Shown: positions 4,791 through 22,106 of the stretch, in pieces
Numbering within the stretch: position 1 is the stretch's first letter
Layout of the letters: every line of letters begins with the position of its first letter
Assembly: GCA_964344085.1 (NCBI GenBank)
Contig: CAYFMA010000024.1
Coordinates: 16,896 to 40,895 of the forward strand
Source of the DNA: an uncultured Mycobacterium sp.
Lineage (GTDB): Bacteria > Actinomycetota > Actinomycetes > Mycobacteriales > Mycobacteriaceae
Length of the DNA stretch: 24,000 nt
Reading direction: 5' to 3'
Notes under the pieces: generated by a model
What the model was told of the DNA's origin: nothing
The model's input: only the letters and a program-made list of their open reading frames with translations
Databases searched by the model: none
Position numbers and translations under genes: made by a program

Positions 4791-6512
4791 CTAGCCGAAT
4801 TTCTTCTGTCCGGCCACCCAGGTTTCCGAGACCGTGATGGTCTCGATCTTCTCCGGATCGCTGGTGTACGGGTCGGACTCGAGGATGGTGAGATCGGCTT
4901 CCTTGCCGGCCTCCAGTGTGCCGATGGTGTCGGCCAGCCCGATATGGCGGGCGGCGTTGATCGTGACGGCCCTCATCGCCTGATCGATCGTGAGGCACAG
5001 ATCCTTCCCGAGCACCGATCCGTCGACCGAGCAGCGCCGGGTGACGGCGGTCTGCACGATGCGCAGCGGGTTCGGCGGCAGGCCCGCGGCGGGGGCATCG
5101 GAATGCAGCGAGAACTCCATCCCGGCCTGGGCGGCCGCACCGGCCGGCGCCATGAACTCCGCGCGCTGCGCGCCGAAGATCTGATCGCGGTAGGCCGCGC
5201 CGTACAGATAGATGAAGTCCGGGATGAACGTCGGCTCGATGCCGAGGGTCTTCATCCGCTCGATCTGATCGCGGCGGGCCATCGTCGCGTGATCGATGCG
5301 GTTGATGCCGAGTGGGGAGTCCTTGCCGTACACCGCCTCGATGGCGTCGATGGCCTCCTGCACCGCGGCATCGCCCTGGCAGTGGATCATGATCGGCCAG
5401 CCGGCGTCCTTGGCCGACTGGCACAGCGCGGCGAACTCGGTCGGGGTGTAGTTGGCCTTGCCGGTGCTCGTGCTGTTCAGATACGGCTGCGACTGTGCGG
5501 CCATCTCGGCCTGATTGGACCCGTCGGCCCACATCTTCATGCCGTACAGCGACAGCCGGCTGCCCGCGATGTGGCGGGCCTTGTTCGACGGGCCCAGCGC
5601 GGCGAAGGTCTTGCTCGCCTCGGCGGCGTCGGTGCTGAAGCTGGCGGACAGCCGGACGTCGAGAGCGTTGGACAGTTGCGCAAGGCCGTCGATGGCCTGC
5701 GGCCGGATGGTGCCGGGCTCATGCAGGGTGGTGTTGCCCGCCGCCGCCACCTTCTTGGTGTAGGCCATGATCGCCTCGGCCATCGCCTGCGGCGTGCCGG
5801 CCGGGACGGCCGCGCCGATGAAGCGCAGCAGGGCCGGCTGCTCGTAGATGCTGCCGTCGAGCTTGCCGTCGGCCCCTCTGCCGAAATGCCCGCCGCCGGG
5901 CAGGGTTCCGACATCCTCGGCGACGCCGGCCTTCTCGAACGCGCACGCGTTGGCGGCGCCGACGTGGCCGTTGACGTACATGACGAAGATCGGATGTGCG
6001 GTCGATACGGCGTCGAGATCGGCTCCGGTGAGGTCGCCGCCCTGCAGCAGGTTGTCGTAGAAGCCGCAGGCGATCCATTGTCCGGCTTCGGTTTTCGCCG
6101 CGATGCCCTTGAGGTGGACGAGCATCTCGGCCCTGGTGTGGAACTGGGTGTAGCCGACGTCTTTCAGGGCGCCGCCGAGCACGGCAGCCAGGGTGTAGTG
6201 GTGGTGCGGGTCGACCAGGCCCGGCAGCAGGGTGCGGCCGGCCAGGTCGACGATCCGGGTCTTGGGGCCTTTCAGGGCCTGCATGTCATCGGCCGAACCG
6301 GCGCCCAGGATGGTGGAGCCCGCGATGGCCAGCGCCTGGACCGGATCGCCGGCCATGGTGCGGATGGTGCCGCTCTGGAAGATGACGTCGGCGACGGTGG
6401 GCGGGGCCGATGGTCCACCCTGTGGTGCGGAGGCGGCGTGCCGGCGGGCCGGCAGATACAGGCCCTCGGTCAGACGGTCGGCGATGGGGGACGGCTCACA
6501 CCAACGGCACAT
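4791..6512 (-). CDS. Metal-dependent amidohydrolase (Amidohydro_3 / YtcJ-like)
   Basis: HxH metal motif in LLPGLVDPHHHY, and an ADVIFQSGTIRTM... N-terminal beta-sandwich pattern. The track ORF extends to 6719. I moved the start to the ATG at 6512, the most downstream in-frame start before the conserved core, because it avoids overlapping the divergent gene at 6544. Confidence 0.8.
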   Translation of the reverse strand: MCRWCEPSPIADRLTEGLYLPARRHAASAPQGGPSAPPTVADVIFQSGTIRTMAGDPVQALAIAGSTILGAGSADDMQALKGPKTRIVDLAGRTLLPGLVDPHHHYTLAAVLGGALKDVGYTQFHTRAEMLVHLKGIAAKTEAGQWIACGFYDNLLQGGDLTGADLDAVSTAHPIFVMYVNGHVGAANACAFEKAGVAEDVGTLPGGGHFGRGADGKLDGSIYEQPALLRFIGAAVPAGTPQAMAEAIMAYTKKVAAAGNTTLHEPGTIRPQAIDGLAQLSNALDVRLSASFSTDAAEASKTFAALGPSNKARHIAGSRLSLYGMKMWADGSNQAEMAAQSQPYLNSTSTGKANYTPTEFAALCQSAKDAGWPIMIHCQGDAAVQEAIDAIEAVYGKDSPLGINRIDHATMARRDQIERMKTLGIEPTFIPDFIYLYGAAYRDQIFGAQRAEFMAPAGAAAQAGMEFSLHSDAPAAGLPPNPLRIVQTAVTRRCSVDGSVLGKDLCLTIDQAMRAVTINAARHIGLADTIGTLEAGKEADLTILESDPYTSDPEKIETITVSETWVAGQKKFG

Positions 6513-6543
6513 GGCGGCAAGCTTAAGCAAGTAGCTTGATGCG

Positions 6544-7503
6544 ATGCAGACACTCATCGCGGTTCGTTCACCCCTGATCGCCGGTACGGCTCTCGCCGTC
6601 GGCATCGGCGTGCTGCCCGCAGCGCCGCCGGCCCAGATCTCGCTGGCGTCCTTCGACAGCCCGCTGTCGGAACTGATCAGCACCGCGGTGTTGATCAACA
6701 ACGACATCTTCAACGGCACCGACGTGTTCGGTGACTACCAGTGGGAGCCCTATCAGGGTGCATTGCCGGAGTTCATCTACACGGCGTTGCCGATCATCAG
6801 CCAGATGGGCTACAACGGGGCCGCCGACATCGGCGGGACCGTCGACGCGGTGGGCACCTCGGCCTACATCCTCAGTGAGGCGGTCTGGAATCTGCCCGCG
6901 GCGGTGGTGACCGCCACCCAGCAGGCGATCGGCGGTGACATCCCCGGTGCGATCACGACCCTGACCAATGCGACGGTGGTGCCATTGCAAGATGCCGTCT
7001 ATACCACCGTCGATGCACTCAACGTCGTCGTCAACGCGGTGGCCGCGCGCCTCGCGGGCTTCGTCGCGGTGATGCCCGGCATCCTGCAGGGCCTGGTGAC
7101 CACGACCGTCGGTTCGGTGCAGGCGGTGGTCAACGCGGCGGTCACCATCGTCACCCAGACCGTCGGTGCGCTGTCGACGGGAGACATCGAGACCGCGTGG
7201 AACACGGTCGTCGACGGACTGCTCGGGCCGGTCGGGGCGGACGGAGCGGTGACGTCGAGCATCGCCGGCGTCATCGAGAACGTGACGATAGGACCCGGAC
7301 TGGGACCGCTGGGAAACCCGAACGGCTATGCGCTGCCGAGCTTCCGGATGTGGGGCGAGCAGTCGCAACTGCAGATCGCCAATGCCATCGGGGCGTCGTA
7401 TCCGGTACCGGCGGCGGCGATGAAGCGCTCAGCGCACAAGACCGCTGCGAAGGCGACCGCCGCGAAGGCGAGCGTTAGACCAGAAAAACGTCGTCGAGGG
7501 TGA
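6544..7503 (+). CDS. Ala/Val/Thr/Gly-rich hypothetical protein with an N-terminal hydrophobic signal or anchor and a basic Lys/Ala C-terminal tail
   Basis: ATG at 6544 lies 6 nt after a TAGCTT box. N-terminus is SPLIAGTALAVGIGVLPAAPPA. The C-terminal 30 aa are KRSAHKTAAKATAAKASVRPEKRRRG-like. Coding-type GC3 bias. Confidence 0.65.
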   Translation: MQTLIAVRSPLIAGTALAVGIGVLPAAPPAQISLASFDSPLSELISTAVLINNDIFNGTDVFGDYQWEPYQGALPEFIYTALPIISQMGYNGAADIGGTVDAVGTSAYILSEAVWNLPAAVVTATQQAIGGDIPGAITTLTNATVVPLQDAVYTTVDALNVVVNAVAARLAGFVAVMPGILQGLVTTTVGSVQAVVNAAVTIVTQTVGALSTGDIETAWNTVVDGLLGPVGADGAVTSSIAGVIENVTIGPGLGPLGNPNGYALPSFRMWGEQSQLQIANAIGASYPVPAAAMKRSAHKTAAKATAAKASVRPEKRRRG

Positions 7504-8284: not shown

Positions 8285-8372
8285 GACGGGCAGACTATCT
8301 GGTCCGGTCGCGGCGACACGCCGATCCACGACGTCGGGCCCGGGATTGTGGCCTTTCCGAGACAAGTCTCTG

Positions 8373-8395
8373 TTTGCCCGCCTCGTAGCGACAAC
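8373..8395. repeat. Exact 23-nt copy (TTTGCCCGCCTCGTAGCGACAAC) of the arm of the 12968-13034 inverted repeat
   Basis: Direct string identity with 12970-12992 and with the reverse complement of 13010-13032. It lies in the divergent intergenic region between the deacetylase and phosphatase genes. Confidence 0.9.
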
Positions 8396-8450
8396 GAAAT
8401 CTGTCGGTACCAGGGGATACGTTTCAGGTGGAGAGAGAAAGGGGGACCCG

Positions 8451-9440
8451 GTGGAGGACGGGACGAAGCAAAAGGGGAACAGGCGGGGTCTGGACATCAT
8501 CGGCGACGTGCACGGGCACGCCGCGAAACTGGAGGAGCGGCTGACGGGGTTGGGCTACGAGCCCGACGGCGCCGGCTACCGGCACCCCGAACGCACGGCG
8601 GTCTTCGTCGGCGATCTGATCGACCGGGGGCCGCAGCAACTGCGCACCCTCGAGATCGCGCGCGCAATGGTCGAGGCCGGCAGTGCCCACATGGTGATGG
8701 GCAATCACGAGTTCAACGCGCTGGCCTTCGCGGCCGGACTGCGTGAGGACAACGAGAAGCACAGGCGCCAGCACGCGGAGTTCCTCGGGCAGCTGACCGC
8801 CGAGCAGCAGACCGAGTATCTGGACTGGTTCTGGACGATCCCGCTGTGGCTGGACCTCGGCGAGGTCCGGGTGGTGCACGCCTGCTGGCATGAGCCCTCG
8901 ATGGCGGTGGTCCGCGACGTCTGCGGCGGCGACCGGCTGGCGCCCGAACACCTGGCGTCGGCCAGTGCCGAGGGCGATCCGCTCTACGAGGCGGTGGAGA
9001 TTCTGCTGAAGGGCCCGGAGATCTGCCTGGCCGACTATGCCCAGCCGCCGTACGTCGACAAGGACGGCAACCGGCGGATCAACGCCCGCACCAAGTGGTG
9101 GCACCGCGGCGCGACGACGTTGCGCGAGCTGGCCGTCCTGGACGGCAACTTCATGACCGAGGACGGCAAGCCGTACCCGCTGCTGCCCGAGATCGAGGTC
9201 GACGAGAGCGACCGATCGGTGGTCTACAACGATGAGGTGCCGGTGATCTACGGCCACTACTGGCGGACCGACCAGCCGGTACACCTGGACGACTGGACCA
9301 CCTTCACCGCCTGCGTGGACTTCAGCGCCGCCAAGGACGACGGAGTGCTGGTGGTCTACCGATACGACGGTGAGCCCACGATCCGGCTGCGCAACTACGT
9401 GCCGCACGGAGCGGACGTGATCGAGCAGAGCGCGAGCTAG
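8451..9440 (+). CDS. PPP-family metallophosphoesterase (PrpE/ApaH-like Ser/Thr phosphatase or diadenosine tetraphosphatase)
   Basis: Motifs GDVHGH, GDLIDRGP and GNHE. I moved the start from the track's 8196 to the GTG at 8451, preceded by the strong SD GAGAGAGAAAGGGGGA (8431-8446). Confidence 0.85.
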   Translation: MEDGTKQKGNRRGLDIIGDVHGHAAKLEERLTGLGYEPDGAGYRHPERTAVFVGDLIDRGPQQLRTLEIARAMVEAGSAHMVMGNHEFNALAFAAGLREDNEKHRRQHAEFLGQLTAEQQTEYLDWFWTIPLWLDLGEVRVVHACWHEPSMAVVRDVCGGDRLAPEHLASASAEGDPLYEAVEILLKGPEICLADYAQPPYVDKDGNRRINARTKWWHRGATTLRELAVLDGNFMTEDGKPYPLLPEIEVDESDRSVVYNDEVPVIYGHYWRTDQPVHLDDWTTFTACVDFSAAKDDGVLVVYRYDGEPTIRLRNYVPHGADVIEQSAS

Positions 9441-11879: not shown

Positions 11880-12938
11880 GTGACTCCAAGCCCCGCTGAC
11901 CTGCGCCGCTGGCGCCGTCACCTGGCCAATGAGCGCGCCGAGGCCGCGGTCTACCGCGACCTCGCCCAGCGTCACACCGGCGAGGAACGCGAGATCCTGG
12001 CCGCCATCGCCGCCTCCGAGGAACGTCACCAGCAGCACTGGCTCGATCTGCTGGGCGACCAGGTGGGCGAGCCGGTGCGGGCCGACCTCGGGACCCGCGC
12101 GCTGGCCTTCCTGGCCCGCCATTTCGGCTCGGTGTTCGTGCTCGCTCTGGTGCAGCGGTTCGAGGCGCGCAACGTCTACGAGGACGACGCCGACGCCACC
12201 CCGACGATGGCCGCCGACGAACAGATCCACGAAGAGGTCATCCGGGCGCTGGCCGGCCGCGGCCGCGACCGGCTGTCCGGAACCTTCCGCGCCGCGGTGT
12301 TCGGCGCCAACGACGGGCTCGTCAGCAATCTCGCGCTGATCCTCGGTGTCAGCGCCAGCGGAGTCTCCGGTCACACCATCCTGGTGACCGGCCTGGCCGG
12401 GCTGCTGGCCGGTGCGCTCTCGATGGGCGCGGGGGAGTACGTCTCGGTGAGCTCGCAGCGCGAACTCCTGGCGGCCTCAGCCCCCAGCCCCAATGTGGGT
12501 ACCGCTCTGCTGCAGCTCGACGTCGACGCCAACGAACTCGAATTGGTCTATCGCGCAAGGGGAATGACGGCCGAGGAGGCGGCCCGGCATGCGGCCGAGG
12601 TGCTGCGCAACGAGATCGGGCACGAACCGCCGGGCCACGACGCCGACCGGCATGAGGCGGTCGGAACCGGACTCGGTGCGGCGTTGTCGAGCTTCATGTT
12701 CTTCGCGACCGGTGCGCTGATCCCCGTGTTGCCGTATCTGTTCGGGCTCAGCGGGACCACCGCTGTGGTGGTCGCCGCGGTGCTCGTCGGCATCACCCTG
12801 CTGGGCACCGGCGTGATCGTCGGTCTGCTCTCCGGGGCGCCGCCGCTGCTGCGGGCACTGCGTCAGCTGATGATCGGCTACGGCGCGGCCGGGATCACCT
12901 ATCTGCTGGGTCTGCTGGTCGGCGCGGGCGTCGGCTGA
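11880..12938 (+). CDS. mbfA: MbfA-like membrane-bound ferritin: N-terminal ferritin/erythrin-like domain fused to a VIT1/CCC1 Fe/Mn transporter domain
   Basis: ExxH-type di-iron motif (SEERHQQHW) in the N-terminal part. VIT1 hallmark AAVFGANDGLVSNLALILGV and C-terminal TM helices. Confidence 0.75.
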   Translation: MTPSPADLRRWRRHLANERAEAAVYRDLAQRHTGEEREILAAIAASEERHQQHWLDLLGDQVGEPVRADLGTRALAFLARHFGSVFVLALVQRFEARNVYEDDADATPTMAADEQIHEEVIRALAGRGRDRLSGTFRAAVFGANDGLVSNLALILGVSASGVSGHTILVTGLAGLLAGALSMGAGEYVSVSSQRELLAASAPSPNVGTALLQLDVDANELELVYRARGMTAEEAARHAAEVLRNEIGHEPPGHDADRHEAVGTGLGAALSSFMFFATGALIPVLPYLFGLSGTTAVVVAAVLVGITLLGTGVIVGLLSGAPPLLRALRQLMIGYGAAGITYLLGLLVGAGVG

Positions 12939-12967: not shown

Positions 12968-13034
12968 TTTTTGCCCGCCTCGTAGCGACAACGCTCGCGC
13001 GCCGGAGGAGTTGTCGCTACGAGGCGGGCAAAAA
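12968..13034. terminator. Perfect 25-bp inverted repeat (17-nt loop) flanked by T5/A5: putative bidirectional intrinsic terminator or palindromic repeat element
   Basis: TTTTTGCCCGCCTCGTAGCGACAAC (12968-12992) is the exact reverse complement of 13010-13034. It sits between convergent genes ending at 12938 and 13085. Confidence 0.55.
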
Positions 13035-13056
13035 GAGAGTCGGGTGGGCGGCGGGT

Positions 13057-13096
13057 CTAGAGCGCCGGGCCTAGAGCGCCGGGCCTAGAACTGGGC
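13057..13096. repeat. 14-bp tandem repeat CTAGAGCGCCGGGC x2 plus a degenerate third unit that contains the stop codon of the 13085-13396 gene
   Basis: Copies at 13057-13070 and 13071-13084, and CTAGAACTGGGC at 13085-13096. The arm AGAGCGCCGGG (13073-13083) is also complementary to 13097-13107. Confidence 0.8.
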
Positions 13097-13396
13097 CCCG
13101 GCGCTCTGCATCAGTCCGATGCAGGTGCCGATGTTCTGCGGAGTGCAGGGGACACCCCGCACCGTCGGCAACTCGTTGGGGCCGCCGCCGACGATCGGCG
13201 GGCCACTGTTGGGCACGATCGCGCCGGGGATCTGGCCGCTGGGCATCTGACCGCCGCCGCCCTGCCCGGAGACGCACACACCGTCGAAGCTGGTCTGGAC
13301 CGTGCCGTAGGGGCAGGCCTGGGCGGGTGCCGCGGTCGCGCACAGGCCGGCGCCGACCAGTACGGCGCAAGCTCCGGCGCTGAGCAACGACCTCAC
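13085..13396 (-). CDS. Small secreted Gly/Pro-rich protein with four cysteines (103 aa)
   Basis: Signal peptide RSLLSAGACAVLVGAGLCATAAPAQA. The mature part has CPYG, GVCVSG, VPCTP and GTCIG. I moved the start from 13747 to the GTG at 13396, 6 nt after a TACTCT box. The longer ORF overlaps the divergent gene and has a non-protein-like N-terminus. Confidence 0.65.
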   Translation of the reverse strand: MRSLLSAGACAVLVGAGLCATAAPAQACPYGTVQTSFDGVCVSGQGGGGQMPSGQIPGAIVPNSGPPIVGGGPNELPTVRGVPCTPQNIGTCIGLMQSAGAQF

Positions 13397-13522
13397 CGGG
13401 GAAGAGTAACCCGCCGCAGTCTGGAAGGTTGCTGAACGACCTCGTGGGAACCTGCTGTGAATACCGCCGAAATGGCCTCTGAGCGGCGCATTCACCCCCG
13501 AAGGCCACGTACGTTCGCAGCT

Positions 13523-13786
13523 ATGAACGAGACCATGAAACGACTCTTCGTCGCCGGTGTCCTCGCCGGGTTCGCCGTCCTCGGAGTGGGAGTCGGGGCT
13601 TCGGCGACGGCCGCCGCCAGTGACATGAACATCAATGCCACCGGAGGCTCGGGAACAGCCGTCGACAAGGACGGAACCCAGGGCGATATCAAGCCCGCCG
13701 TCCAGGGGGCCCCGGACGACGACAACGACCAGGACGCCTGGCTGCACGGATCCCCGGACTTCACGCCGCAGTACAAGGCCAAATAG
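13523..13786 (+). CDS. Small secreted protein (87 aa, acidic mature region), immediately upstream of the CuMMO genes on the same strand
   Basis: Signal peptide MKRLFVAGVLAGFAVLGVGVGASATAAA. ATG at 13523 lies 7 nt after a TACGTT box. The ATG at 13535 is an alternative start. Confidence 0.6.
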   Translation: MNETMKRLFVAGVLAGFAVLGVGVGASATAAASDMNINATGGSGTAVDKDGTQGDIKPAVQGAPDDDNDQDAWLHGSPDFTPQYKAK

Positions 13787-13793
13787 CCGACTC

Positions 13794-13841
13794 GCCGAAT
13801 ATTCCGATCAGGCCGAATATCTAGACACTTGCAACTGCAAG
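13794..13841 (+). promoter_or_regulatory. Repeat/palindrome cluster upstream of hmoC (possible operator region)
   Basis: Direct repeat GCCGAATAT at 13794-13802 and 13812-13820. Palindrome CTTGCA-AC-TGCAAG at 13828-13841. The region is locally AT-enriched in an otherwise GC-rich window. Confidence 0.3.
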
Positions 13842-13886
13842 GGGTTGAATGTCAAGAACATCTCACTTGATGGAAGGCCTGCAGCT

Positions 13887-14717
13887 ATGACAACCATGGA
13901 CGTCCGGCACGACGCCGCCAAAGCCTCCGGCGCCGCCACCAAGAAGAAGAAGTGGGGCCCGGTCGCCCAGGGCGGGTCACTGTGGACCTGGGCCGTCGCG
14001 ATGGCCCCGATCGTCGCGATCTTCATCGGTTGGCGCACCTACCAGCAGGTTTTCGCCTTCGAGTACGGTCTTGACGCGCACAGCGCCGGGTTCAACAAGT
14101 ACTGGCTGACCCTGGCCCTGGTGAACATGACGGTGCTGCCGGCCATCGCCGGCGCCTGGTACGTCTGGATGTGGTTCTCCGGCCAGAAGCTGAACAAGCA
14201 GCCCAGCCGTGAAGAGGAGAGCCGCCGGATCTGGAACCTGTGGCTGATCATCCTGTCCTTCACCACCGCCGTGTTCGGCGCGGCGAGCTACTGCGCCGAG
14301 CAGGACGCCTCGTGGCACCAGATCGTCACCCGCGACACCGCCTTCACCCCGAGCCACGACGTGCTGTTCTACGGCTCGTTCCCGGTGCTGATCTACCTGG
14401 CCGTCGGCGCCTTCATCTACGCCCGCACCCGGCTGCCGCACCTGTTCGGCGGCAAGATGGTTCCGGTGTCCTTCGCCCTGATCATCGGCGGCACCGTGCT
14501 GCTGCTGTTCCAGGTCGCGATGAACGAGTTCGGCCACTCCTTCTTCCAGGCCGAGGAACTGTTCGCCGCTCCGCTGCACTGGCCGTTCGTGCTGTTCGGT
14601 TACCTGCTCGCCGGAACCTTCGCGGTGTGGTTCGCCACCGTGCCCCGTGTCGCTGAGCTGGCCCGCCAGGAGCGGCAGATGGCTGAGACCCCGGAGCTCG
14701 ACGCCGCGAACGCATGA
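13887..14717 (+). CDS. hmoC: Copper membrane monooxygenase subunit C (AmoC/PmoC family; hydrocarbon monooxygenase HmoC-type)
   Basis: AEQDASWHQIVTRDTAFTPSH gives D140-x3-H144-x12-H157. NEFGHSFFQAEELFAAPLH gives N213-x3-H217-x13-H231. These match the spacing of the two PmoC metal sites. ATG at 13887 is preceded by SD GGAAGG. The track ORF start at 13635 was rejected. Confidence 0.9.
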   Translation: MTTMDVRHDAAKASGAATKKKKWGPVAQGGSLWTWAVAMAPIVAIFIGWRTYQQVFAFEYGLDAHSAGFNKYWLTLALVNMTVLPAIAGAWYVWMWFSGQKLNKQPSREEESRRIWNLWLIILSFTTAVFGAASYCAEQDASWHQIVTRDTAFTPSHDVLFYGSFPVLIYLAVGAFIYARTRLPHLFGGKMVPVSFALIIGGTVLLLFQVAMNEFGHSFFQAEELFAAPLHWPFVLFGYLLAGTFAVWFATVPRVAELARQERQMAETPELDAANA

Positions 14718-15493
14718 CCGCCTCGGAAACCGCGGCACTCGAGGAGGCAGGACCGCCCTCGAAGCCGCTACTGAGTCGACGCTGGGATTTCCTGTTCATC
14801 TTCGCGGCCATGTTTCTGGTCATGGGCGCGTTCCACGTCAACCAGATGCTGTTCTCCGGTGACTGGTCGTTCTGGGCGGACTGGAAGGACCGGGAGTTCT
14901 GGCCACTGGTCACTCCCGCCGTCGGCATGATCGTGGTGGCCGCACTGCAGTACATCACCTGGTCTCTGCTGCGGCTTCCGGTCGGAGCGACCTTCGGTGC
15001 GGTGGTCCTGATGCCTGCCCAGTGGCTGTCGCGATGGGGCAGCTTCTCGGAATGGACGCACATTCCGCTGAACTTCACCTGGCCGGAGACCTTCGTCCTG
15101 GCTGCGGTGATCCTCGACGTCGTGCTGGCGGTCACCCGCAGCTACATCCTCACGTCGATGATCGGCGGCATGCTGTGGGGAGCGGTGTTCTGGTTCTTCA
15201 ACTTCACCGGTCTGTCGCCGTACCTGGCGCCGGTGGACTTCCACGGCACCCTGCTCACCGTCGCCGACACCATCTCCTTCCACGCGGCGCGCACCCAGAC
15301 TCCGGAATACCTGCGCATCATCGAGGAGGGCCACCTCAAGGCACTCGTCAGTGACATCACCATCGTGGTGGCCTTCTTCGCCGGCATGCTGTCGGTGGCG
15401 GCGTACTGGATCGGTCTTCTGATCGGCAAGTACCTCGCGGTCTGGCCGATCGGCAAGTTCTTCAAGCTGCAGACCGATTCGGCCGTCAAGTGA
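14714..15493 (+). CDS. hmoA: Copper membrane monooxygenase subunit A (AmoA/PmoA family; HmoA-type)
   Basis: Hallmark GDWSFWADWKDREFWP and QTPEYLRIIEEG align by eye along the whole length with PmoA. ATGA overlap with hmoC. Confidence 0.9.
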   Translation: MTASETAALEEAGPPSKPLLSRRWDFLFIFAAMFLVMGAFHVNQMLFSGDWSFWADWKDREFWPLVTPAVGMIVVAALQYITWSLLRLPVGATFGAVVLMPAQWLSRWGSFSEWTHIPLNFTWPETFVLAAVILDVVLAVTRSYILTSMIGGMLWGAVFWFFNFTGLSPYLAPVDFHGTLLTVADTISFHAARTQTPEYLRIIEEGHLKALVSDITIVVAFFAGMLSVAAYWIGLLIGKYLAVWPIGKFFKLQTDSAVK

Positions 15494-16704
15494 TTCGCCG
15501 TCTGTTCCCGCTGTTCGCGGTCGTCGGGCTGCTCATGCTGATGGCCCCGCCGCCAATCGCCTCGGCGCACGGAGAGCAGGGGCAACAGGCCTTCGAGCGC
15601 ACCTCCACGGTGCTCTTCTACGACGTCAAGTTCTCCACCACGACCGTCGACATCAATGCGCCGCTGACCATCACCGGCACGGTGCGGGTGATGAACTCCT
15701 GGCCCGACCACACCATCGGCCCGCCGGAACTGGGCTACCTGACCGTCAACGAGCCCGGTCCGGTGCTCTCGGTTCAGGAGCGCTGGATGTCGGGGATGTT
15801 CACCCCGCAGTCGGTCAATCTGACCAAGGGTGGGATCTATCCGTTCAAGCTCGTCCTCAAGGGACGGGTACCGGGCACCTGGCACGTGCACCCGGCACTG
15901 GCCGTCAAGGGCACCGGCACCCTGATGGGACCGGGACAGTGGGTGACGGTCAACGACGCCGGCGGTCCGTTCACCGAACCGCAGCAGCTCTCCGACGGCA
16001 GTGTCGTCGACCTCGCGCACTACGGCCTGAAACGGGTCGCGTGGTGGCACATCATCTCCTTCCTGTTCGGCGCCGGTTACGTCTGGTACTGGTTGCGGCA
16101 GAACTCGTTGAATCGCCTGCTGGTGGTCAACGCGGGTGACGGCGCGACCCTGGTGACCAAACAGGAGCGCCGGGTCAGCGTCCTGTTCGCCATCGGAGCG
16201 CTGGCGCTGGGCATCGGCGGCTTCGTCTACGCCACCGTCTCCGACGGCCCGCACATCCCGTTGCAGGTGGCCCGGGTGACCCCGGTGCCGGAACTGCCCA
16301 ACGCACTGGGCGCCGGGCTGAACACCACCGTGCAGAAGGCAGTCTTCGGCGATAAGACCGGCAAGCTCGACCTGTCGGTGAAGGTCACCAACAACACCGA
16401 TCAGCCGGTGACGTTCGACCATCTGCAGTTCGCCGATTACATCGTCGCCAGCCCCGACGCGGTCGAGCAGGTGCCGGTCGAGCAGCGGGCGACCGTCACG
16501 CCGTCGGGTGCGATCCCGCCGAAGCAGACCCGGGAGATGACCATCAGCCTGGATGCGCGCGCGTTGCGCAGCCAGAACCTGTTGCCGCTCAACGACGCTC
16601 AGATCCGGCTCACCGGTCTGATGTTCTTCCGGGACGCCAAGGGCCAGACCTCGGCCACCGAGATCAACGAACTGACCTCCGGCATCCTGCCGCAGTACGG
16701 ATAA
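15490..16704 (+). CDS. hmoB: Copper membrane monooxygenase subunit B (AmoB/PmoB family; HmoB-type)
   Basis: Signal peptide ends ASA|HGEQ, so the mature N-terminal residue is His27. WHVHP supplies H132/H134. Two internal TM helices separate two beta-rich domains. GTGA overlap with hmoA. Confidence 0.9.
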   Translation: MIRRLFPLFAVVGLLMLMAPPPIASAHGEQGQQAFERTSTVLFYDVKFSTTTVDINAPLTITGTVRVMNSWPDHTIGPPELGYLTVNEPGPVLSVQERWMSGMFTPQSVNLTKGGIYPFKLVLKGRVPGTWHVHPALAVKGTGTLMGPGQWVTVNDAGGPFTEPQQLSDGSVVDLAHYGLKRVAWWHIISFLFGAGYVWYWLRQNSLNRLLVVNAGDGATLVTKQERRVSVLFAIGALALGIGGFVYATVSDGPHIPLQVARVTPVPELPNALGAGLNTTVQKAVFGDKTGKLDLSVKVTNNTDQPVTFDHLQFADYIVASPDAVEQVPVEQRATVTPSGAIPPKQTREMTISLDARALRSQNLLPLNDAQIRLTGLMFFRDAKGQTSATEINELTSGILPQYG

Positions 16705-16709
16705 CGGCC

Positions 16710-16880
16710 ATGACCACCACCATCCTTGCCCACGGCGGTCAGATCACCGGCGATGAGATGGCGCTGATCGGTGGCGGGCTGTTCTTCGCGATGGCCTTCC
16801 CGGCGGTGGCCCTGGTGATCGCCATGCGTCGCGGCCGGCGGCACCAGAACGCGAATCAGACCGATGAGGCGAGTGTGTGA
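16710..16880 (+). CDS. Single-pass membrane micro-protein (56 aa), not in the supplied ORF track
   Basis: ATG lies 5 nt after the hmoB stop. Translation is MTTTILAHGGQITGDEMALIGGGLFFAMAFPAVALVIAMRRGRRHQNANQTDEASV. It has one TM helix followed by RRGRRH (positive-inside rule) and high-GC3 codons. Confidence 0.6.
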   Translation: MTTTILAHGGQITGDEMALIGGGLFFAMAFPAVALVIAMRRGRRHQNANQTDEASV

Positions 16881-16893
16881 AGGGGCGCTGCAG

Positions 16894-17097
16894 ATGAACT
16901 ACACGGTTCTGGCGATGACGCTGGCGATCCTCGTGCTCGCGGTGTTTCTGCCGTTGTCGGCGATCGCCTTCATCATGATCAAGTCCACCTCCTCCAGTGA
17001 CGATTTCAGCCTTGGTGCAGTGAGTCTTCAAGACGAGTTGCATAATTTCCTGGCTGAATTCGAGAGCGGTTCGCATACCGCCGACAACTGGAGATGA
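16894..17097 (+). CDS. Single-pass membrane micro-protein (67 aa) with an acidic C-terminal region
   Basis: ATG at 16894 is preceded by SD AAGGGG (16880-16885). N-terminal TM is MNYTVLAMTLAILVLAVFLPLSAIAFIMI. It ends 1 nt before the next gene. The C-terminal half has unusually low GC3, so the call is tentative. The track start at 16864 is less likely. Confidence 0.45.
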   Translation: MNYTVLAMTLAILVLAVFLPLSAIAFIMIKSTSSSDDFSLGAVSLQDELHNFLAEFESGSHTADNWR

Positions 17098-17098
17098 T

Positions 17099-17539
17099 GT
17101 GTCGATCAAATACGCCGGCGCTGCGGCGTCGGTCGTGGCTCTGGCCGCGCTGACCGCGGGATGCTCGGCCAAGACGGCCACGACCACGGCGTCATCTGCA
17201 TCGCCGGCGGCCTCCAGTGCGGTGTCATCGGTGGCTCCGTCGGCGTCCTCATCGGCTTCGTCGGTCCCCACGCCCGTCGGCCTGACCATCCCGGTCACCA
17301 TCGTCAAGGGTGTGGTCACTCCGGCCAACGGCGAGTACGAGGCCACCGTCGGCGAGCGGATCGAGTTCGACGTCGACAGCGACGCCGCCGACGAACTGCA
17401 TGTGCACGCGGTGCCCGAGCATGAGTTCGCGGTGAAGCCCGGCAGCCAGAGCTTCAGCTTCGTCGTGAAGGTGCCCGGTCAGGTGGTCGTCGAATTGCAC
17501 AGCACCGACAAGACGGTGGCCACACTGACGGTGCGGTGA
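17099..17539 (+). CDS. Lipoprotein with a Ser/Ala/Thr/Pro linker and a C-terminal cupredoxin-like beta-sandwich domain bearing four His (no Cys or Met)
   Basis: Lipobox LTAGC. A long S/A/T/P-rich linker. Domain pattern GERIEFDVDSDAADELHVHAVPEHEFAVKPG...PGQVVVELHS resembles cupredoxin-fold strand patterns. GTG start is preceded by SD GGAG. Confidence 0.8.
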   Translation: MSIKYAGAAASVVALAALTAGCSAKTATTTASSASPAASSAVSSVAPSASSSASSVPTPVGLTIPVTIVKGVVTPANGEYEATVGERIEFDVDSDAADELHVHAVPEHEFAVKPGSQSFSFVVKVPGQVVVELHSTDKTVATLTVR

Positions 17540-18822
17540 CATCCCCCGCGAGCTTCCCCCGGCACGGTCTGGGCGGCAGCGCCGATCTGCCGATCCCGTT
17601 CACCTACACGGTGGTCGCAGCGGCATGGGCGCTGAGCTTCTCGTTCGTCATCCTGATCTTCGCCTGGCGCACACCGCGGCTGCGCGCGGATTCACCGGGG
17701 CTCGCGCTGCCGTCATGGGTCAACGCCTTCGCGTCCTCGCCGGTGACCCGCCGGATACTGGCCGCGCTCGGCCTGGCCTTCACCGCGTGGGTCGCCATGG
17801 CCGGTTTCCTCGGGCCGGCCAAGTCGAGCCAGAACGCACTGCCCGCAACGGTTTACGTGCTGCTGTGGGTCGGGCTGGTGGCGCTGTCGCTGATCTTCGG
17901 ACCGGTGTGGAAACTGATCTCGCCGGTGCGGGCCACCCATCCCGGTCCCGGGCGCAGGACCTATCCGCAGCGGTGGGGTTACTGGCCGGGTGTCATCGGC
18001 CTCTTCGCGTTCGCCTGGATGGAACTGGCCTCGCCGGATCCGGGATCGGTTCGTGCGCTGCTGATCTGGTGCTGCGTCTATCTCGCCGTCACCTCGCTCG
18101 GCGCCGCGGTCTACGGCAGCCGCTGGTGTGAGAGCGGCGATCCGTTCGAGGTCTACAGCACGCTGGTCTCGCACCTGTCGTTCGTGGGCCCGGGCGCACG
18201 TTCGGGGACCTGGGTGCTGCGCAACCCGCTGAACAATCTGCAGCGCGTCGATGTCCGCGCCGGGTCGGTGGCGCTGACCGCAACACTGCTCGGCTCAACG
18301 GCGTTCGACAGTTTCTCGGCACGGCCGGGCTGGCATCGCTGGGTCGACTCGGTCGCGCATTCTCCGGTGCAGGCCACCGGTATCCGCACCATCGGCCTAC
18401 TGGCGATGATCGCACTGGTCGGCGGATCGTTCTGGCTCGCAACCCGAGCGGTACCAGGCCTGCAAGCCGCGCAGCGCCGCGCACTGCCCGGCCTGATGTC
18501 CCCGTCGCTGGTGCCGATCATCGTCGGCTATGTGTTCGCGCACTACATCTCCTATCTGCTGGAGAAGGGTCAGGTGGCGGTCCGGTTGCTGCTCGGCATG
18601 GACCCGGGCGACGTCAACTACTTCCTGTCCAACCACCCCACCCTGCTGGCCACGCTCAAGGTGCTGTTCGTGCTCACCGGGCACGTGCTGGGGGTGATGG
18701 CAGCCCACGACCGCTCCCTGCGGGTACTGCCGGCGCGCCGGCAACTCACCGGGCAGTTGCCGCTGCTGATGGTGATGGTGCTCTTCACCTGCGGCGGCCT
18801 CTTCCTGCTTTTCGCGGGGTAG
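17536..18822 (+). CDS. Polytopic (about 10 TM) integral membrane protein of unknown function
   Basis: GTGA overlap with the preceding lipoprotein gene. N-terminal HGLGGSADLPIP motif, about ten hydrophobic segments, a GDPFEVYS loop, and TM-embedded GHVLGVMAAHD. Confidence 0.85.
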   Translation: MTSPASFPRHGLGGSADLPIPFTYTVVAAAWALSFSFVILIFAWRTPRLRADSPGLALPSWVNAFASSPVTRRILAALGLAFTAWVAMAGFLGPAKSSQNALPATVYVLLWVGLVALSLIFGPVWKLISPVRATHPGPGRRTYPQRWGYWPGVIGLFAFAWMELASPDPGSVRALLIWCCVYLAVTSLGAAVYGSRWCESGDPFEVYSTLVSHLSFVGPGARSGTWVLRNPLNNLQRVDVRAGSVALTATLLGSTAFDSFSARPGWHRWVDSVAHSPVQATGIRTIGLLAMIALVGGSFWLATRAVPGLQAAQRRALPGLMSPSLVPIIVGYVFAHYISYLLEKGQVAVRLLLGMDPGDVNYFLSNHPTLLATLKVLFVLTGHVLGVMAAHDRSLRVLPARRQLTGQLPLLMVMVLFTCGGLFLLFAG

Positions 18823-18831
18823 CGTTGACTG

Positions 18832-19347
18832 ATGCGGGTATCACGGCTTCTCCCGGCGGTCGCGGCGGTGCTGGCCGTGACGCTGGGCGGATGTGCCAGC
18901 GACGCGAAGGGGAGTGGCCCGGAGATGACAGACAGCGGCCTGCCGCCGACCGCGACGGTGGTCTACCACTTCCAGGACTCGTCGGTGCCCCCGCCGTACC
19001 ACCGCAGCTACACCCTGAACTTCGACCGCAATCAGGTGCACATCGTGGTGGACAGCTACGGCGACGTGCTGGCCGACCGGACCGCCCCCATGACCGACGC
19101 GGCCTGGACCACGGTGTCCAGCAATTACGCGTCGATCCGCAATGTCACCGTGCGTCAGCCGCCCGAGGGTTGCGTCGGCGGGACAGGCTTCGCGCTGACG
19201 GTGAACGACGCGGGCGCGACGGTCTTCTCGTTGCAGGCCTCGGTGTGCGGCGGGGTGAACTCGGATGCCTCCCGCCGGGTGCGGGACTGGGTGCAACCGG
19301 TGCGCACGCTGCTGCCCTCGCTGGACGAGATGGCCCCCGGCGGCTAA
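18832..19347 (+). CDS. Lipoprotein of unknown function (171 aa)
   Basis: Signal peptide with lipobox TLGGC. The mature domain has two Cys (EGCVGG, SVCGG). It starts 9 nt after the membrane protein stop. Confidence 0.8.
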   Translation: MRVSRLLPAVAAVLAVTLGGCASDAKGSGPEMTDSGLPPTATVVYHFQDSSVPPPYHRSYTLNFDRNQVHIVVDSYGDVLADRTAPMTDAAWTTVSSNYASIRNVTVRQPPEGCVGGTGFALTVNDAGATVFSLQASVCGGVNSDASRRVRDWVQPVRTLLPSLDEMAPGG

Positions 19348-20108
19348 CCGCGGGGCATCTTCTCCCAGGCGTTGTGGCCGACGAACAGCGCGGCGACGAT
19401 CAGCAGCGCGGCGGTGATCCAGCGTCCGTGCACCTTCATGATCCGCTCGTAGCCATCCTTGATCCGCTCGGTGGATCCGGGCTTGACGACGTCGATGACG
19501 GCCGGCAACACCGCGGGGATCACTGAGATCACCGCGAACACCACGATGCCCAAGACGCGTTCCGGGCGCGAGGTGATCTGCAGGATCTGATGGCCTGCGG
19601 CGATGGCGATGGGGAACACCTTGGGATGCAGCCCGCACATCGCGAAGCCCGCTGTTGCGGCCCGCGCGACGCGATGGCGAGCCGGCAGGTCGGCTCCGGG
19701 CTGCCAGGCCCCGGCGACCTTCGGCAGGTGTTCGCGGACCCAAGTCCTCGTCTTGCCGGGCGTATGGCTCTTCTCCGAAGGATCGGGAATCGGCTTGTGC
19801 CGCATCGCATTGACGGCGCGGGTCAGCCCGATCGCCAGCAACACCGCGGCGATGACGGCACGGACGATGAACCCGGGCCAGCTGTCCGGGTGGACGGCTG
19901 CGGTCTCGTCGGAGCCCGAGGCCCGGGCGATCCACAGGCCGATTCCGGTGGCGAAGGCGATGCCGACGATGCCGCCGGCGCCGTATGCGATGGCGGCCAG
20001 TCGGGGCACCTTCTGGTCACCGGCGACCACCAGTCCCACCACAAGGGTCTCCGGACTGAAGAAGATGGCGAATGCCAGCGAGGCGACGACCGCGAGATGC
20101 TCGCTCAT
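19344..20108 (-). CDS. Integral membrane protein, probably GAP/Sap (sulfolipid-addressing-protein-like) family
   Basis: Six hydrophobic segments with a central charged loop. The N-terminal FSPETLVVGLVV...AYGAGG pattern resembles that family, but the family assignment is weak. It starts 4 nt after the upstream gene's stop. Confidence 0.7.
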   Translation of the reverse strand: MSEHLAVVASLAFAIFFSPETLVVGLVVAGDQKVPRLAAIAYGAGGIVGIAFATGIGLWIARASGSDETAAVHPDSWPGFIVRAVIAAVLLAIGLTRAVNAMRHKPIPDPSEKSHTPGKTRTWVREHLPKVAGAWQPGADLPARHRVARAATAGFAMCGLHPKVFPIAIAAGHQILQITSRPERVLGIVVFAVISVIPAVLPAVIDVVKPGSTERIKDGYERIMKVHGRWITAALLIVAALFVGHNAWEKMPRG

Positions 20109-20112
20109 CGTG

Positions 20113-20625
20113 TCAGTGGGGCAGTGGGGTACAGCTGTGCGGGCCCTGGTCGGCGAAGTGCACCGCGGGCATGCCGTCGACGTAGGTGTACTCGACCGTC
20201 GGGCTCCAGCTGGTGCCGGGCTTGACCCACGGCGGCACCCCCACCGGGTAGGCGACCGTCAGGTCGCGGTAGAACTGCACCCCGTCCGGGCAGCCGGGCG
20301 TGGCCGGTGACTGCGGGTTCCAGGCGTGCACGACGATCGGGTTGCGCAGATGCGGCCCCTGCGCGCAGTCGGGCTGACACTCCACGGAGTTGTCCATGCC
20401 GAAACCGGAGGCGCCGTCGGCACCCCAGGCCGTCCACGCCATCTGCTCCATGACCGAGGTGCCGTCGCAGTTGTACATGACCTCGACCGGCCGCTCGACC
20501 ACCGGCTGGCTGGGGTCGTAGCAACGGCCGATCATGTAGGTCACCGGACCGGCGTCCGCACCGGCCGGCGGCATCCCCGCCGCGCAGGCCACAAGGCCCG
20601 CCATCATCACTGTCGATACCCGCAT
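20113..20625 (-). CDS. Secreted Cys-containing hypothetical protein (170 aa)
   Basis: Signal peptide MRVSTVMMAGLVACAAGMPPAGADA. SD GGAAGGAAAG lies upstream of the ATG at 20625. Coding-type GC3. Confidence 0.75.
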   Translation of the reverse strand: MRVSTVMMAGLVACAAGMPPAGADAGPVTYMIGRCYDPSQPVVERPVEVMYNCDGTSVMEQMAWTAWGADGASGFGMDNSVECQPDCAQGPHLRNPIVVHAWNPQSPATPGCPDGVQFYRDLTVAYPVGVPPWVKPGTSWSPTVEYTYVDGMPAVHFADQGPHSCTPLPH

Positions 20626-20678
20626 GTGGAGTCTTTCCTTCCGCCGCGCCGAATGCTAACGAACATTAATCTCTGGTC

Positions 20679-22106
20679 ATGGTCAGTACCCCCGCCGCAC
20701 GCCGCCACCGGGTGGTCATCATCGGATCCGGGTTCGGCGGCCTCAACGCCGCCAAGGCCCTCAAGCGGGCCGACGTCGACGTCACCCTGGTCGCCAAGAC
20801 CACCAGCCATCTGTTCCAGCCGCTGCTCTACCAGCTGGCCACCGGCATCCTCTCAGCCGGCGATATCGCGCCCACCACCCGTCTCATCCTCAAGAAGAAC
20901 CGGAACTGCAAGGTACTGCTCGGCGATGTCGAGGACATCGACCTGGCCAACGGGACGGTCACCTCGAAGCTGATGTCGATGGAGACCGTACTGCCGTTCG
21001 ACAGCCTGATCGTGGCGGCCGGCGCCCAGCAGAACTACTTCGGCCACGAGGAGTTCGCCACCTTCGCCCCCGGCATGAAGACCATCGACGACGCCCTGGA
21101 GTTGCGCGGCCGGATCCTCGGCGCGTTCGAGGCGGCCGAGGTGACAACCGATCCCGCGGAGCGGGCACGCCGGCTGACGTTCGTCATCGTCGGCGGTGGA
21201 CCGACCGGTGTGGAACTCGCGGGTCAGATCGCCGAACTGGCCCGGCGCACCCTGCCGGGTGCGTTCCGCACCATCGACCCGACCGAGTGCCGGGTGCTGC
21301 TGTTCGACGGGTCACCGTTCGTGCTGTCGCCGATGGGCGAGAAGCTCGGCATGAAGGCCACTCAGCGGCTGGAGAAGATGGGGGTGGAGATCTTCCCCGG
21401 CACCACGGTCACCAACGTGGACTACATGGGGATCACCTACAAGGACAAGCAGACCGGCGTCGAGACCCGCGTCGAGTGCGCCTGCAAGGTGTGGTCGGCC
21501 GGCGTCTCGGCGAGCCCGTTGGGGGAGATGATCGCCGCCCAGTGCGAGGGCACCGAGGTGGACCGGTCCGGACGCGTCGTCGTCGAACCGGATCTCACCG
21601 TCAAGGGGTACCCGAACGTCTTCGTCGTCGGTGACATGGCCGCAGTGCCGGGCGTTCCCGGGGTGGCGCAGGGCGCCATCCAGGGCGCGAAATATGCGGC
21701 GAAGACGATCAAGCGGATGACGCAGGGCACCGACGACCCGGCGGCCCGGGAGCCGTTCAAGTACTGGGACAAGGGCTCGATGGCCACCATCTCGCGCCAC
21801 CATGCGGTGGCCAAGGTCGGCAAGTTCGAGTTCAGCGGCTTCTTCGCCTGGCTCGCCTGGCTTTTCCTGCACCTGCTCTACCTGGTGGGCTTCAAGAACC
21901 GCATCAGCACACTGCTGAGCTGGACGCTGACCTTCACCTCCAACGGCCGCGGTCAGCTGGCCACCACCAGCCAGTGGGTCTACGGCCGGCTGGCCATCGA
22001 CATCGTCGAGAAACAGTTGGAGGAGGCCATCGACGACGCCGAGGAGCGGGCCGACGCCGTCGACGTCTCGCTGGGTGCGGCACTGAGCCGCGAGCATCAG
22101 CGCTAG
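20679..22106 (+). CDS. ndh: Type II NADH dehydrogenase (NDH-2)
   Basis: RVVIIGSGFGGLNAAKAL (first Rossmann GxGxxG), LFQPLLYQLATG, VIVGGGPTGVELAG (second GxGxxG), and a C-terminal amphipathic membrane-anchor region. Confidence 0.9.
   Translation: MVSTPAARRHRVVIIGSGFGGLNAAKALKRADVDVTLVAKTTSHLFQPLLYQLATGILSAGDIAPTTRLILKKNRNCKVLLGDVEDIDLANGTVTSKLMSMETVLPFDSLIVAAGAQQNYFGHEEFATFAPGMKTIDDALELRGRILGAFEAAEVTTDPAERARRLTFVIVGGGPTGVELAGQIAELARRTLPGAFRTIDPTECRVLLFDGSPFVLSPMGEKLGMKATQRLEKMGVEIFPGTTVTNVDYMGITYKDKQTGVETRVECACKVWSAGVSASPLGEMIAAQCEGTEVDRSGRVVVEPDLTVKGYPNVFVVGDMAAVPGVPGVAQGAIQGAKYAAKTIKRMTQGTDDPAAREPFKYWDKGSMATISRHHAVAKVGKFEFSGFFAWLAWLFLHLLYLVGFKNRISTLLSWTLTFTSNGRGQLATTSQWVYGRLAIDIVEKQLEEAIDDAEERADAVDVSLGAALSREHQR

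Follow-up and report, generated by a model that had tools for sequence, protein, structure and literature searches.

A widespread two-gene module of a cupredoxin-fold lipoprotein and a membrane protein has a paralog dedicated to actinobacterial copper membrane monooxygenase loci

Introduction

How copper membrane monooxygenases (CuMMOs; the particulate methane, ammonia, and hydrocarbon monooxygenases pMMO, AMO, and HMO) acquire their copper is unresolved, and the poor activity of these enzymes in heterologous hosts is often blamed on that gap. A 24,000-nucleotide stretch of DNA from an uncultured Mycobacterium sp., hereafter the window, raises this question directly: downstream of its hmoCAB genes, five further open reading frames (ORFs) continue on the + strand, which we call s56, s77, LipoA, Memb, and LipoB. 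None of the five has a match in Pfam, NCBIfam, or the PDB sequences. A preliminary description of the locus had tentatively joined LipoA, Memb, and LipoB into a three-protein accessory module specific to the actinobacterial enzyme. We find instead that the LipoA-Memb pair in the window is a CuMMO-dedicated paralog of a widespread, uncharacterized two-gene module. By analogy with CopC/CopD, this pair may capture copper and transfer it at the membrane on behalf of the CuMMO, a proposal on which we are evenly divided.

Linkage of LipoA and Memb to CuMMO loci

LipoA (17099–17539, + strand) encodes a lipoprotein of 146 residues, and Memb (17536–18822, + strand) a 428-residue protein of an uncharacterized family with 10 transmembrane (TM) helices and an outward-facing N terminus. 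Because each of LipoA, Memb, and LipoB has many conserved homologs, all three are taken to be real genes. In each of the nine actinobacterial CuMMO loci examined, no more than 10 kb separates the LipoA-Memb pair from hmoCAB; these are the loci of the window, its close relative L006, Mycobacterium chubuense NBB4, Rhodococcus WAY2 and ZPP, M. antarcticum, Ca. M. alkanivorans, ENV421, and M. dioxanotrophicus; the four actinobacterial plasmids in PLSDB that carry an HmoB homolog are all among these nine. The placement of the pair differs between loci. In the window, L006, and M. antarcticum, the genes run hmoCAB-s56-s77-LipoA-Memb. In NBB4 and ENV421, the pair comes after genes for an AMP ligase, MimR, and an extracytoplasmic function (ECF) sigma factor, and in Ca. 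M. alkanivorans after an insertion sequence (IS) element and AMP ligase; it is divergent, beyond mdo-moxR-VWA, in the two Rhodococcus loci, and in M. dioxanotrophicus it is upstream of hmoCAB, flanked by sigC and an anti-sigma gene.

A neighbor-joining tree places eight of the CuMMO-linked copies (all but that of M. dioxanotrophicus) in a single clade with a bootstrap value of 100, together with four copies of unexamined context. Copies from the housekeeping context described below, in which the pair accompanies a protein of ~610 residues, form a separate clade, also with a bootstrap value of 100. The M. dioxanotrophicus copy shows 34% identity and branches much more deeply; its pair therefore represents an independent recruitment.

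The linkage might nevertheless lack functional meaning, if a generic envelope or transport module for some other substrate had hitch-hiked on a mobile hmo island. Several of the CuMMO loci are plasmid-borne or adjacent to IS elements, so that part of the linkage could reflect co-mobilization; one copy of the pair is cargo of a Tn7-like element; and the name "Fenitrothion hydrolase," which UniRef gives to many Memb homologs, would point to an unrelated activity. However, the linkage is kept whether the pair is directly downstream of hmoCAB, downstream after three genes, divergent, or upstream, and its retention despite this variation argues for function over simple hitch-hiking, as does the recruitment of a second deep lineage in M. 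dioxanotrophicus. The hydrolase label, given to a protein with 10 TM helices, seems to be a misannotation spread by propagation; tracing it yielded gene lists and nothing in support of the name. We consider hitch-hiking distinctly improbable as an account of the CuMMO-linked pair.

Distribution and gene pairing of the wider family

The Memb family as a whole extends well beyond CuMMO. It comprises at least 5,999 word-indexed matches, at least 4,122 representative clusters (50% identity, E ≤ 1e-3), and at least 563 GTDB species representatives, with members in Actinobacteria, Proteobacteria, and haloarchaea; those carried by Rhizobium, Sulfitobacter, Variovorax, and many haloarchaea are all annotated as "hypothetical." Among the 80 best genome loci, to which all genome-locus counts here refer, a CuMMO is present only in L006, and the other 79 lack one. 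The preliminary description had supposed that the system was specific to the actinobacterial enzyme, and had allowed that wide occurrence without CuMMO would speak against it; for the family as a whole, such wide occurrence is what we observe, and the supposed specificity does not hold.

In 76 of the 80 genome loci, the LipoA-Memb pair instead follows a multi-TM protein of ~610 residues and a single-TM protein of ~67 residues, with no CuMMO nearby and often with pncA downstream. The 610-residue protein matches no Pfam or NCBIfam family, and neither protein has a family assignment. The larger protein (5535–7367 in the M. boenickei locus L001, and in 75 other genome loci) carries the invariant series D92-x3-H96-x14-H111 and D170-x3-H174-x13-H188, the spacing of which mimics the CuC (D-x3-H-x12-H) and CuD (N-x3-H-x13-H) sites of PmoC. 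Homology to PmoC was considered but gained no support from profile comparisons: an hmmsearch against the PDB found no PmoC, and hhalign against a six-sequence AmoC/PmoC alignment returned a probability of 0.2%, leaving a resemblance at the level of motifs. A separate observation concerns L085, labeled as a Bifidobacterium breve metagenome-assembled genome, which has a Memb of mycobacterial type (51% identity) and suggests contamination of the bin.

A LipoA-like gene is immediately upstream of Memb in every genome locus with upstream sequence. Further loci were recovered from soil and other metagenomes with a degenerate DNA motif pattern; a Memb homolog is present in 119 of these 125 loci, and of the 47 with enough upstream sequence, 38 have a LipoA-like gene immediately 5′ of Memb in the same orientation, mostly with a 4-nucleotide overlap. 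In the window, the sequence GTGA at 17536–17539 forms the LipoA stop and overlapping Memb start. This junction had been described before, together with a 1-nucleotide gap between the s77 stop (17097) and the GTG start of LipoA (17099) and a 9-nucleotide gap between the Memb stop (18822) and the ATG start of LipoB (18832), and all three match the sequence. LipoA and Memb are probably translationally coupled.

A third element is often found directly 3′ of Memb homologs, frequently overlapping the stop codon: an ORF of 40–60 residues encoding a single-TM protein of the form M..LAHAGHW...TM...RERRR (L086 at 6326–6499 and L089 at 8318–8473; also L095, L136, L142, L150, L154, L160, L161, L165, L174, L180, L189, L197, L199, and L207). 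Alignment of this family with the mycobacterial 67-residue family by hhalign gave a probability of 89%, and the LAHAGHW ORFs are probably homologous to the 67-residue ORF upstream of mycobacterial LipoA. Taken together, the metagenome and genome neighborhoods thus delimit a conserved unit in which a cupredoxin-like protein and Memb are usually joined by a small TM protein that contains His. In other lineages, His-rich lipoproteins are encoded upstream of the pair (L217 at 6329–7390 and L089 at 6062–6991), one with HEHDGAGHQH and H.HP motifs and another that joins four HHDEGG repeats to a LipoA-like domain; such proteins would be consistent with extracytoplasmic metal capture.

Predicted structure and conservation of LipoA and Memb

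LipoA combines a signal peptide with an LTAGC lipobox (residues 18–22), as expected of a lipoprotein, and the lipobox Cys22 (17162–17164, + strand) is invariant. A Ser/Ala/Thr-rich linker leads to the cupredoxin-fold domain (residues 60–146; 17276–17536, + strand), which the AlphaFold2 (AF2) model, built from 30 homologs, renders as a nine-strand beta domain with a predicted local distance difference test score (pLDDT) above 95. Foldseek returned 266 PDB matches to this domain at E ≤ 0.001, the top 50 of which are all of cupredoxin fold with probability 1.0. The matches include the CuA domain of ba3 oxidase, Brucella FtrB (8vuk; template modeling score 0.63, normalized to the target), the Cup domain of EfeO (7wgu), laccases, and plastocyanin, with FtrB and EfeO both at probability 1.0. 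The cupredoxin-like C-terminal domain, earlier proposed from its strand pattern, is thereby supported by both model and fold search.

The ligand set of type-1 blue copper or CuA centers (His, Cys, His, and Met) was not found in the LipoA sequence: the sole Cys is that of the lipobox, and the loop region of the domain has neither Met nor Cys. The preliminary description had noted this lack, along with four His residues, and the alignment agrees, with S94 and H101 invariant and D95, D98, H103, H108, and H134 conserved at ≥90%. What LipoA conserves is an acidic/His cluster, S94-D-A-A-D-E-L-H101-V-H103 (17378–17407, + strand; in general form S94-D-x-x-D-E-x-H101-x-H103), joined by E132. This cluster is a candidate non-classical metal site, and the motif recurs in distant actinobacterial and Variovorax homologs (SDVADEVHVHGYD, SDQPLVLHLHGYD). 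LipoA is accordingly modeled as a non-canonical cupredoxin without type-1 ligands, and in this it recalls the Cup-II cupredoxins FtrB and EfeO, which coordinate Cu2+ although they lack His-His-Cys (PMC11966278).

For Memb, the AF2 model (pLDDT 86, predicted template modeling score 0.88) and the first alignment were both built from 47 homologs. The model has ten long helices, and a positive-inside count of 13 Lys and Arg residues inside versus 4 outside indicates an N-out topology. Foldseek found no match to this fold in the PDB (best E 0.036, template modeling score below 0.25). Two regions are strongly conserved among the 47 homologs. In the N-terminal extracytoplasmic motif H10-GLGGSADLPIP-21 (17563–17598, + strand), H10, G11, G13, G14, S15, D17, L18, P19, and P21 are invariant, with L12 and I20 conserved at ≥90%; in the TM8-TM9 region (18541–18711, + strand), H336-Y337, E343, Q346, H383, and H391-D392 are invariant, and H383 and H391 fall on the same helix. 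The model and alignment bear out the roughly ten TM segments, the N-terminal motif, and the two His residues in one helix of the preliminary description. H10, E163, D258, H336, H383, H391, and M414 remain invariant in 33 distant sequences with 29%–50% identity, and the TM8-TM9 invariants, together with E163, D258, and M414, form a candidate ion path.

In the distant homologs P0375, P0414, P0421, and P0404, the motif His directly follows the AxA site of a signal peptide (AxA then HG); cleavage there would thus leave this His at position 1 of the mature protein, as in a histidine-brace copper site. P0414 (L087 at 520–2790) is also fused to a C-terminal beta-propeller resembling BNR, sortilin-Vps10, and Ycf48 repeats, and a BNR-like lipoprotein is encoded near another Memb homolog (L086 at 6745–7221). 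These two cases point to a further extracytoplasmic partner domain.

The same features bear on a different role, the delivery of electrons, in which Memb would oxidize quinol and LipoA would act as a cupredoxin-like carrier feeding the CuMMO or, in other mycobacteria, the 610-residue protein. We know of no agreed physiological reductant for the CuMMOs; a cupredoxin fold would suit a carrier, the four invariant His residues of Memb could ligate a cofactor, and the module always adjoins a membrane "client" (hmoCAB or the 610-residue protein). However, the Cys and Met that a type-1 or CuA center requires are missing from LipoA, H383 and H391 are spaced 8 apart on one helix rather than the 13–14 of bis-heme b proteins, and elsewhere the family is partnered by copper chaperones (Sco, CtaG, PCu(A)C, and CopC), not redox enzymes. 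We regard electron delivery as quite improbable.

Metal-related neighborhoods of the family

Independent neighborhoods of the family point mostly to copper. One Memb homolog belongs to an ArsR-flanked operon that encodes CopC, a 152-residue protein, Memb, and a major facilitator superfamily transporter; a Sco gene lies 25 nucleotides upstream in one locus; and one locus has the order LipoA-Memb-small ORF-Caa3_CtaG on a single strand. A census of genes neighboring Memb-family loci counted three Sco, two CtaG, two cation-efflux, and two ArsR genes. PCu(A)C is encoded divergently to the family member in Sulfitobacter, heavy-metal P-type ATPases occur near family members in Haloferax and Haloarcula, M. 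gallinarum carries the pair's family in a metal island with a multicopper oxidase, and a galactose-oxidase-like protein is found in the family neighborhood in Pseudonocardia.

In NBB4, ENV421, and M. dioxanotrophicus, the gene just upstream of the pair encodes a SigC-type ECF sigma factor, and in M. dioxanotrophicus a zf-HC2 anti-sigma gene is directly downstream (L004 6677–7384, L221 8758–9354, and L217 5487–6125 and 9411–10157). In M. tuberculosis, SigC acts against copper starvation (PMC7924339), and the placement of these factors suggests copper-starvation control of the pair. A review of NBB4 assigned the SigC-like factor beside the pair to the smo cluster and left the pair among unlabeled "other genes" (PMC8784404).

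Some neighborhoods are better suited to iron uptake, with LipoA as a ferroxidase-like cupredoxin of the Cup-II type and Memb as a non-homologous substitute for the FTR1/EfeU iron permease. Cup-II cupredoxins such as FtrB lack His-His-Cys ligands, bind Cu2+ via Asp and His, and employ Glu for Fe2+ (PMC11966278), and FtrB and EfeO are both among the structural matches of LipoA. Memb also lies beside genes for DyP (EfeB-like) and PF10634 P19-type Fe2+ transport in Haladaptatus and Haloarcula, and next to sufBD in one soil lineage. However, the 428-residue Memb sequence contains no REXXE motif and has no Pfam match to FTR1 (PF03239), and the majority of the informative contexts are specific to copper (CopC, Sco, CtaG, PCu(A)C, multicopper oxidase, and CuMMO). 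An enrichment of sufBD and LytB was considered as a link to iron-sulfur metabolism and set aside: sufBD is convergent where orientation was checked (L206), and the signal apparently stems from one repeated soil lineage. CuMMOs such as pMMO and AMO, moreover, require copper, not iron. Iron uptake is, in our assessment, quite unlikely.

Small membrane proteins s56 and s77

Between hmoB and LipoA lie two ORFs that the three-protein grouping had left out. s56 (16710–16880, + strand) encodes a 56-residue single-TM protein with the motif ILAHGGQITGDEMALIGGG, which takes the form (I/Y)LAHGGQ(M/I/L)T(G/S)DE(I/M)A across loci; s77 (16864–17097, + strand, with a likelier ATG start at 16894) encodes a small single-TM protein with the C-terminal motif SLQDELHNFLAEFE, or SLQ/HEEL..F. 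Sequences from NBB4, M. dioxanotrophicus, M. antarcticum, Ca. M. alkanivorans, ENV421, and Rhodococcus ZPP have an s56 homolog directly after hmoB, as does L006 by tblastn. Homologs of s77 follow that of s56 in NBB4 (114 residues) and M. dioxanotrophicus (115 residues), and in L006 by tblastn (37%–75% for L004–L006); L219–L221 have a second small ORF of 104–108 residues at this position, likened to s77 by size and position only. The s56/s77 region spans 16710–17097 in the window, 3145–3701 in L004, 13634–14274 in L217, 15277–15534 in L218, 8988–9570 in L219, 5440–6053 in L220, and 5167–5705 in L221.

Homologs of both genes follow hmoB in M. dioxanotrophicus even though LipoA-Memb sits on the opposite side of hmoCAB. 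In the loci compared, s56 and s77 are the most CuMMO-specific genes of the locus and the most tightly tied to hmoCAB, and both are candidates for extra CuMMO subunits or assembly factors. Comparison of s56 with the small housekeeping-module proteins did not support homology (hhalign probability 16%–26%).

LipoB and the border of the hmo island

LipoB (18832–19347, + strand) encodes a lipoprotein of 171 residues with a TLGGC lipobox (residues 17–21, Cys conserved at ≥90%) and the motif F.DSSVPPPYHRSY; the Cys pair remarked on earlier, C114 and C139, is invariant among its homologs. Its inclusion with LipoA and Memb in a trio specific to the actinobacterial CuMMO is favored, in the window, by the 9-nucleotide gap after Memb and the lack of a terminator between the two genes. 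A consensus scan of 13000–20700 returned 4 weak terminator sites, compared with 2.7 ± 1.7 in shuffled sequence; all of these lie inside ORFs and none between genes of the hmo strand, so the terminator-free stretch earlier described up to the convergent SfLAP-family gene (19344–20108) is upheld.

However, NBB4 and 79 of the 80 genome loci have no LipoB, and at CuMMO loci beyond the window it occurs only in L006. There, three minus-strand genes (a toxin-antitoxin-like pair of an HTH protein and a nucleotidyltransferase-like protein, plus a P450) separate it from Memb, and the order LipoB-SfLAP-p170 is retained. Elsewhere, LipoB homologs occur in a P450-LipoB-SfLAP-NDH2 synteny with neither CuMMO nor Memb, and the genes downstream of LipoB in the window are the same as in this synteny. 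The chromosomal order LipoB-SfLAP-(170-residue secreted protein)-NDH2 is conserved in the window (18832–22106), L006 (11266–15200), and L222. LipoB is thus a resident chromosomal gene at the right border of the island, outside the module, and the hmo island appears to have been inserted just upstream of it. Given this synteny and the absence of LipoB elsewhere, the island ends at 18822, the 9-nucleotide gap is the junction, and the Cys pair of LipoB is irrelevant to CuMMO. The co-occurrence with xmoCAB that the preliminary description put up for checking holds for LipoA and Memb, found at all nine loci, but not for LipoB, and with the family of the pair so widespread without CuMMO, the trio as originally drawn is scarcely tenable.

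The CuMMO genes themselves serve here as context: hmoC (ORF from 13635, likely start near 13848; Pfam AmoC, 4.8e-55), hmoA (14714–15493; Pfam AMO, 4.3e-63), and hmoB (15490–16704; Pfam Monooxygenase_B, 1.9e-94), all on the + strand; PDB AmoC/PmoC chains match at 1e-37 to 1e-44. The hmoC ORF runs ~70 codons upstream of the region aligned with AmoC/PmoC; its true start is probably near 13848 (MTTMDVRH...), and the 5′ extension (13635–13847) is overlapped by an ORF for a 109-residue secreted protein (13457–13786). Just upstream of the cluster is a gene of the VIT1/CCC1 family of iron/manganese transporters (11880–12938; Pfam VIT1, 3e-54), the product of which bears an N-terminal extension of ~135 residues.

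Discussion

LipoA-Memb resembles known systems that couple a metal binder to a membrane partner in the service of cuproenzymes, but it is built from unannotated families. As was stated earlier for LipoA, Memb, and LipoB, none shows the motifs of PmoD, CopC, or CopD, and this accords with the database searches. The closest parallels are CopC/CopD and YcnI/YcnJ, from proteobacterial pmo/amo operons and Bacillus, which likewise pair an extracytoplasmic metal binder with a polytopic, His-rich membrane protein. Like copC and copD, the genes adjoin CuMMO operons, the N-terminal His motif faces outward, and in one locus a Memb homolog takes the usual place of copD after a CopC-domain gene, with one small gene between. 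However, there is no homology at the sequence level: Pfam searches at E ≤ 1 gave no match to CopC (PF04234) or, for Memb and its distant members, to CopD (PF05425), and NCBIfam gave none for LipoA. LipoA is a predicted cupredoxin rather than a CopC beta-barrel, and Memb, with 10 TM helices to the 8 of CopD, is set apart by profiles and motifs alike.

FtrB/FtrC and EfeO/EfeU also combine a cupredoxin that has an Asp/Glu/His cluster in place of His-His-Cys with a membrane permease encoded beside it. LipoA shares the fold and the missing His-His-Cys of the Cup-II proteins but has no sequence-level match to them; Memb is not FTR1-like, the actinobacterial members have no P19/FtrA or FtrD partner, and their contexts relate to copper and not to iron. 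PmoD, AmoD, and AmoE are small, cupredoxin-like extracytoplasmic proteins encoded downstream of xmoCAB and specific to CuMMO organisms, and PmoD has a CuA-like Cys/Met/His site with the motif Cx7MxH...C (PMC6189053). LipoA is similar in size, predicted fold, location, and gene position, but it lacks the Cx7MxH motif, has its Cys only at the lipid anchor, and belongs to a family widespread outside CuMMO organisms. The means of attachment also differ, PmoD being anchored through a C-terminal TM helix and LipoA by N-terminal lipidation. The copper-insertion factors Sco, PCu(A)C, and CtaG are neighbors of Memb-family genes and not homologs, with no match to LipoA or Memb; their recurrent adjacency suggests a shared pathway that metallates membrane cuproenzymes. 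We found no publication that discusses the LipoA and Memb genes, and papers on CuMMO evolution and on PmoD (PMC6189053) are silent on the pair.

These comparisons lead to the following proposal for copper supply, which draws on how LipoA is modeled to fold, on the topology and conserved residues of Memb, and on the coupling of the genes, their tracking of CuMMO, and the recurrent copper neighborhood; from these we infer the identity of the metal, the direction of its transfer, and the client. The lipid-anchored cupredoxin domain of LipoA would bind copper at the outer face of the membrane through its Cys-free Asp/Glu/His cluster (SDxxDExHxH...E) and pass it to Memb at the His motif of its extracytoplasmic N terminus (HGxGGxxDLPIP). 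Copper would then move through Memb along the invariant E163, D258, H336, H383, M414, and H391-D392, and either cross the membrane, on the model put forward for CopD and YcnJ, or pass sideways to membrane cuproenzymes. Where the pair accompanies hmo genes, it would in this way supply HmoCAB with copper.

Several observations weigh against this proposal. In 76 of the 80 genome loci the pair accompanies the unassigned 610-residue protein and not a CuMMO. The plasmids and IS elements at several CuMMO loci, the DyP and P19-type neighbors in haloarchaea, and the sufBD genes of the soil lineage fit other explanations. H134 of LipoA is not kept in distant homologs, and because Memb of the window has nine residues before H10 and lacks a signal peptide, a true N-terminal histidine brace is uncertain. 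Searches of Pfam, NCBIfam, and PDB sequences, extended to distant homologs, and Foldseek with the Memb model detected no homology to characterized copper proteins, and the case for copper is built from sequence, models, and genomic context.

A bolder version, which we think unlikely, would make Memb a copper transporter or insertase with a new class of fold that metallates membrane cuproenzymes together with a Cys-free cupredoxin, its CuMMO clade loading the CuMMO and its housekeeping clade serving the 610-residue protein with its PmoC-mimicking motifs. If this were true, most fast-growing mycobacteria, Rhodococcus, and Nocardia would contain a cryptic PmoC-like copper enzyme, and the long-sought route by which the actinobacterial CuMMO is loaded with copper would run through the CuMMO clade. 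LipoA-Memb, together with s56 and s77, offers a concrete and testable candidate for copper supply to these enzymes. The Memb family comprises thousands of unannotated sequences in three phyla and is recurrently found beside copper chaperones and cuproenzymes; the characterization of one member would annotate many genomes.

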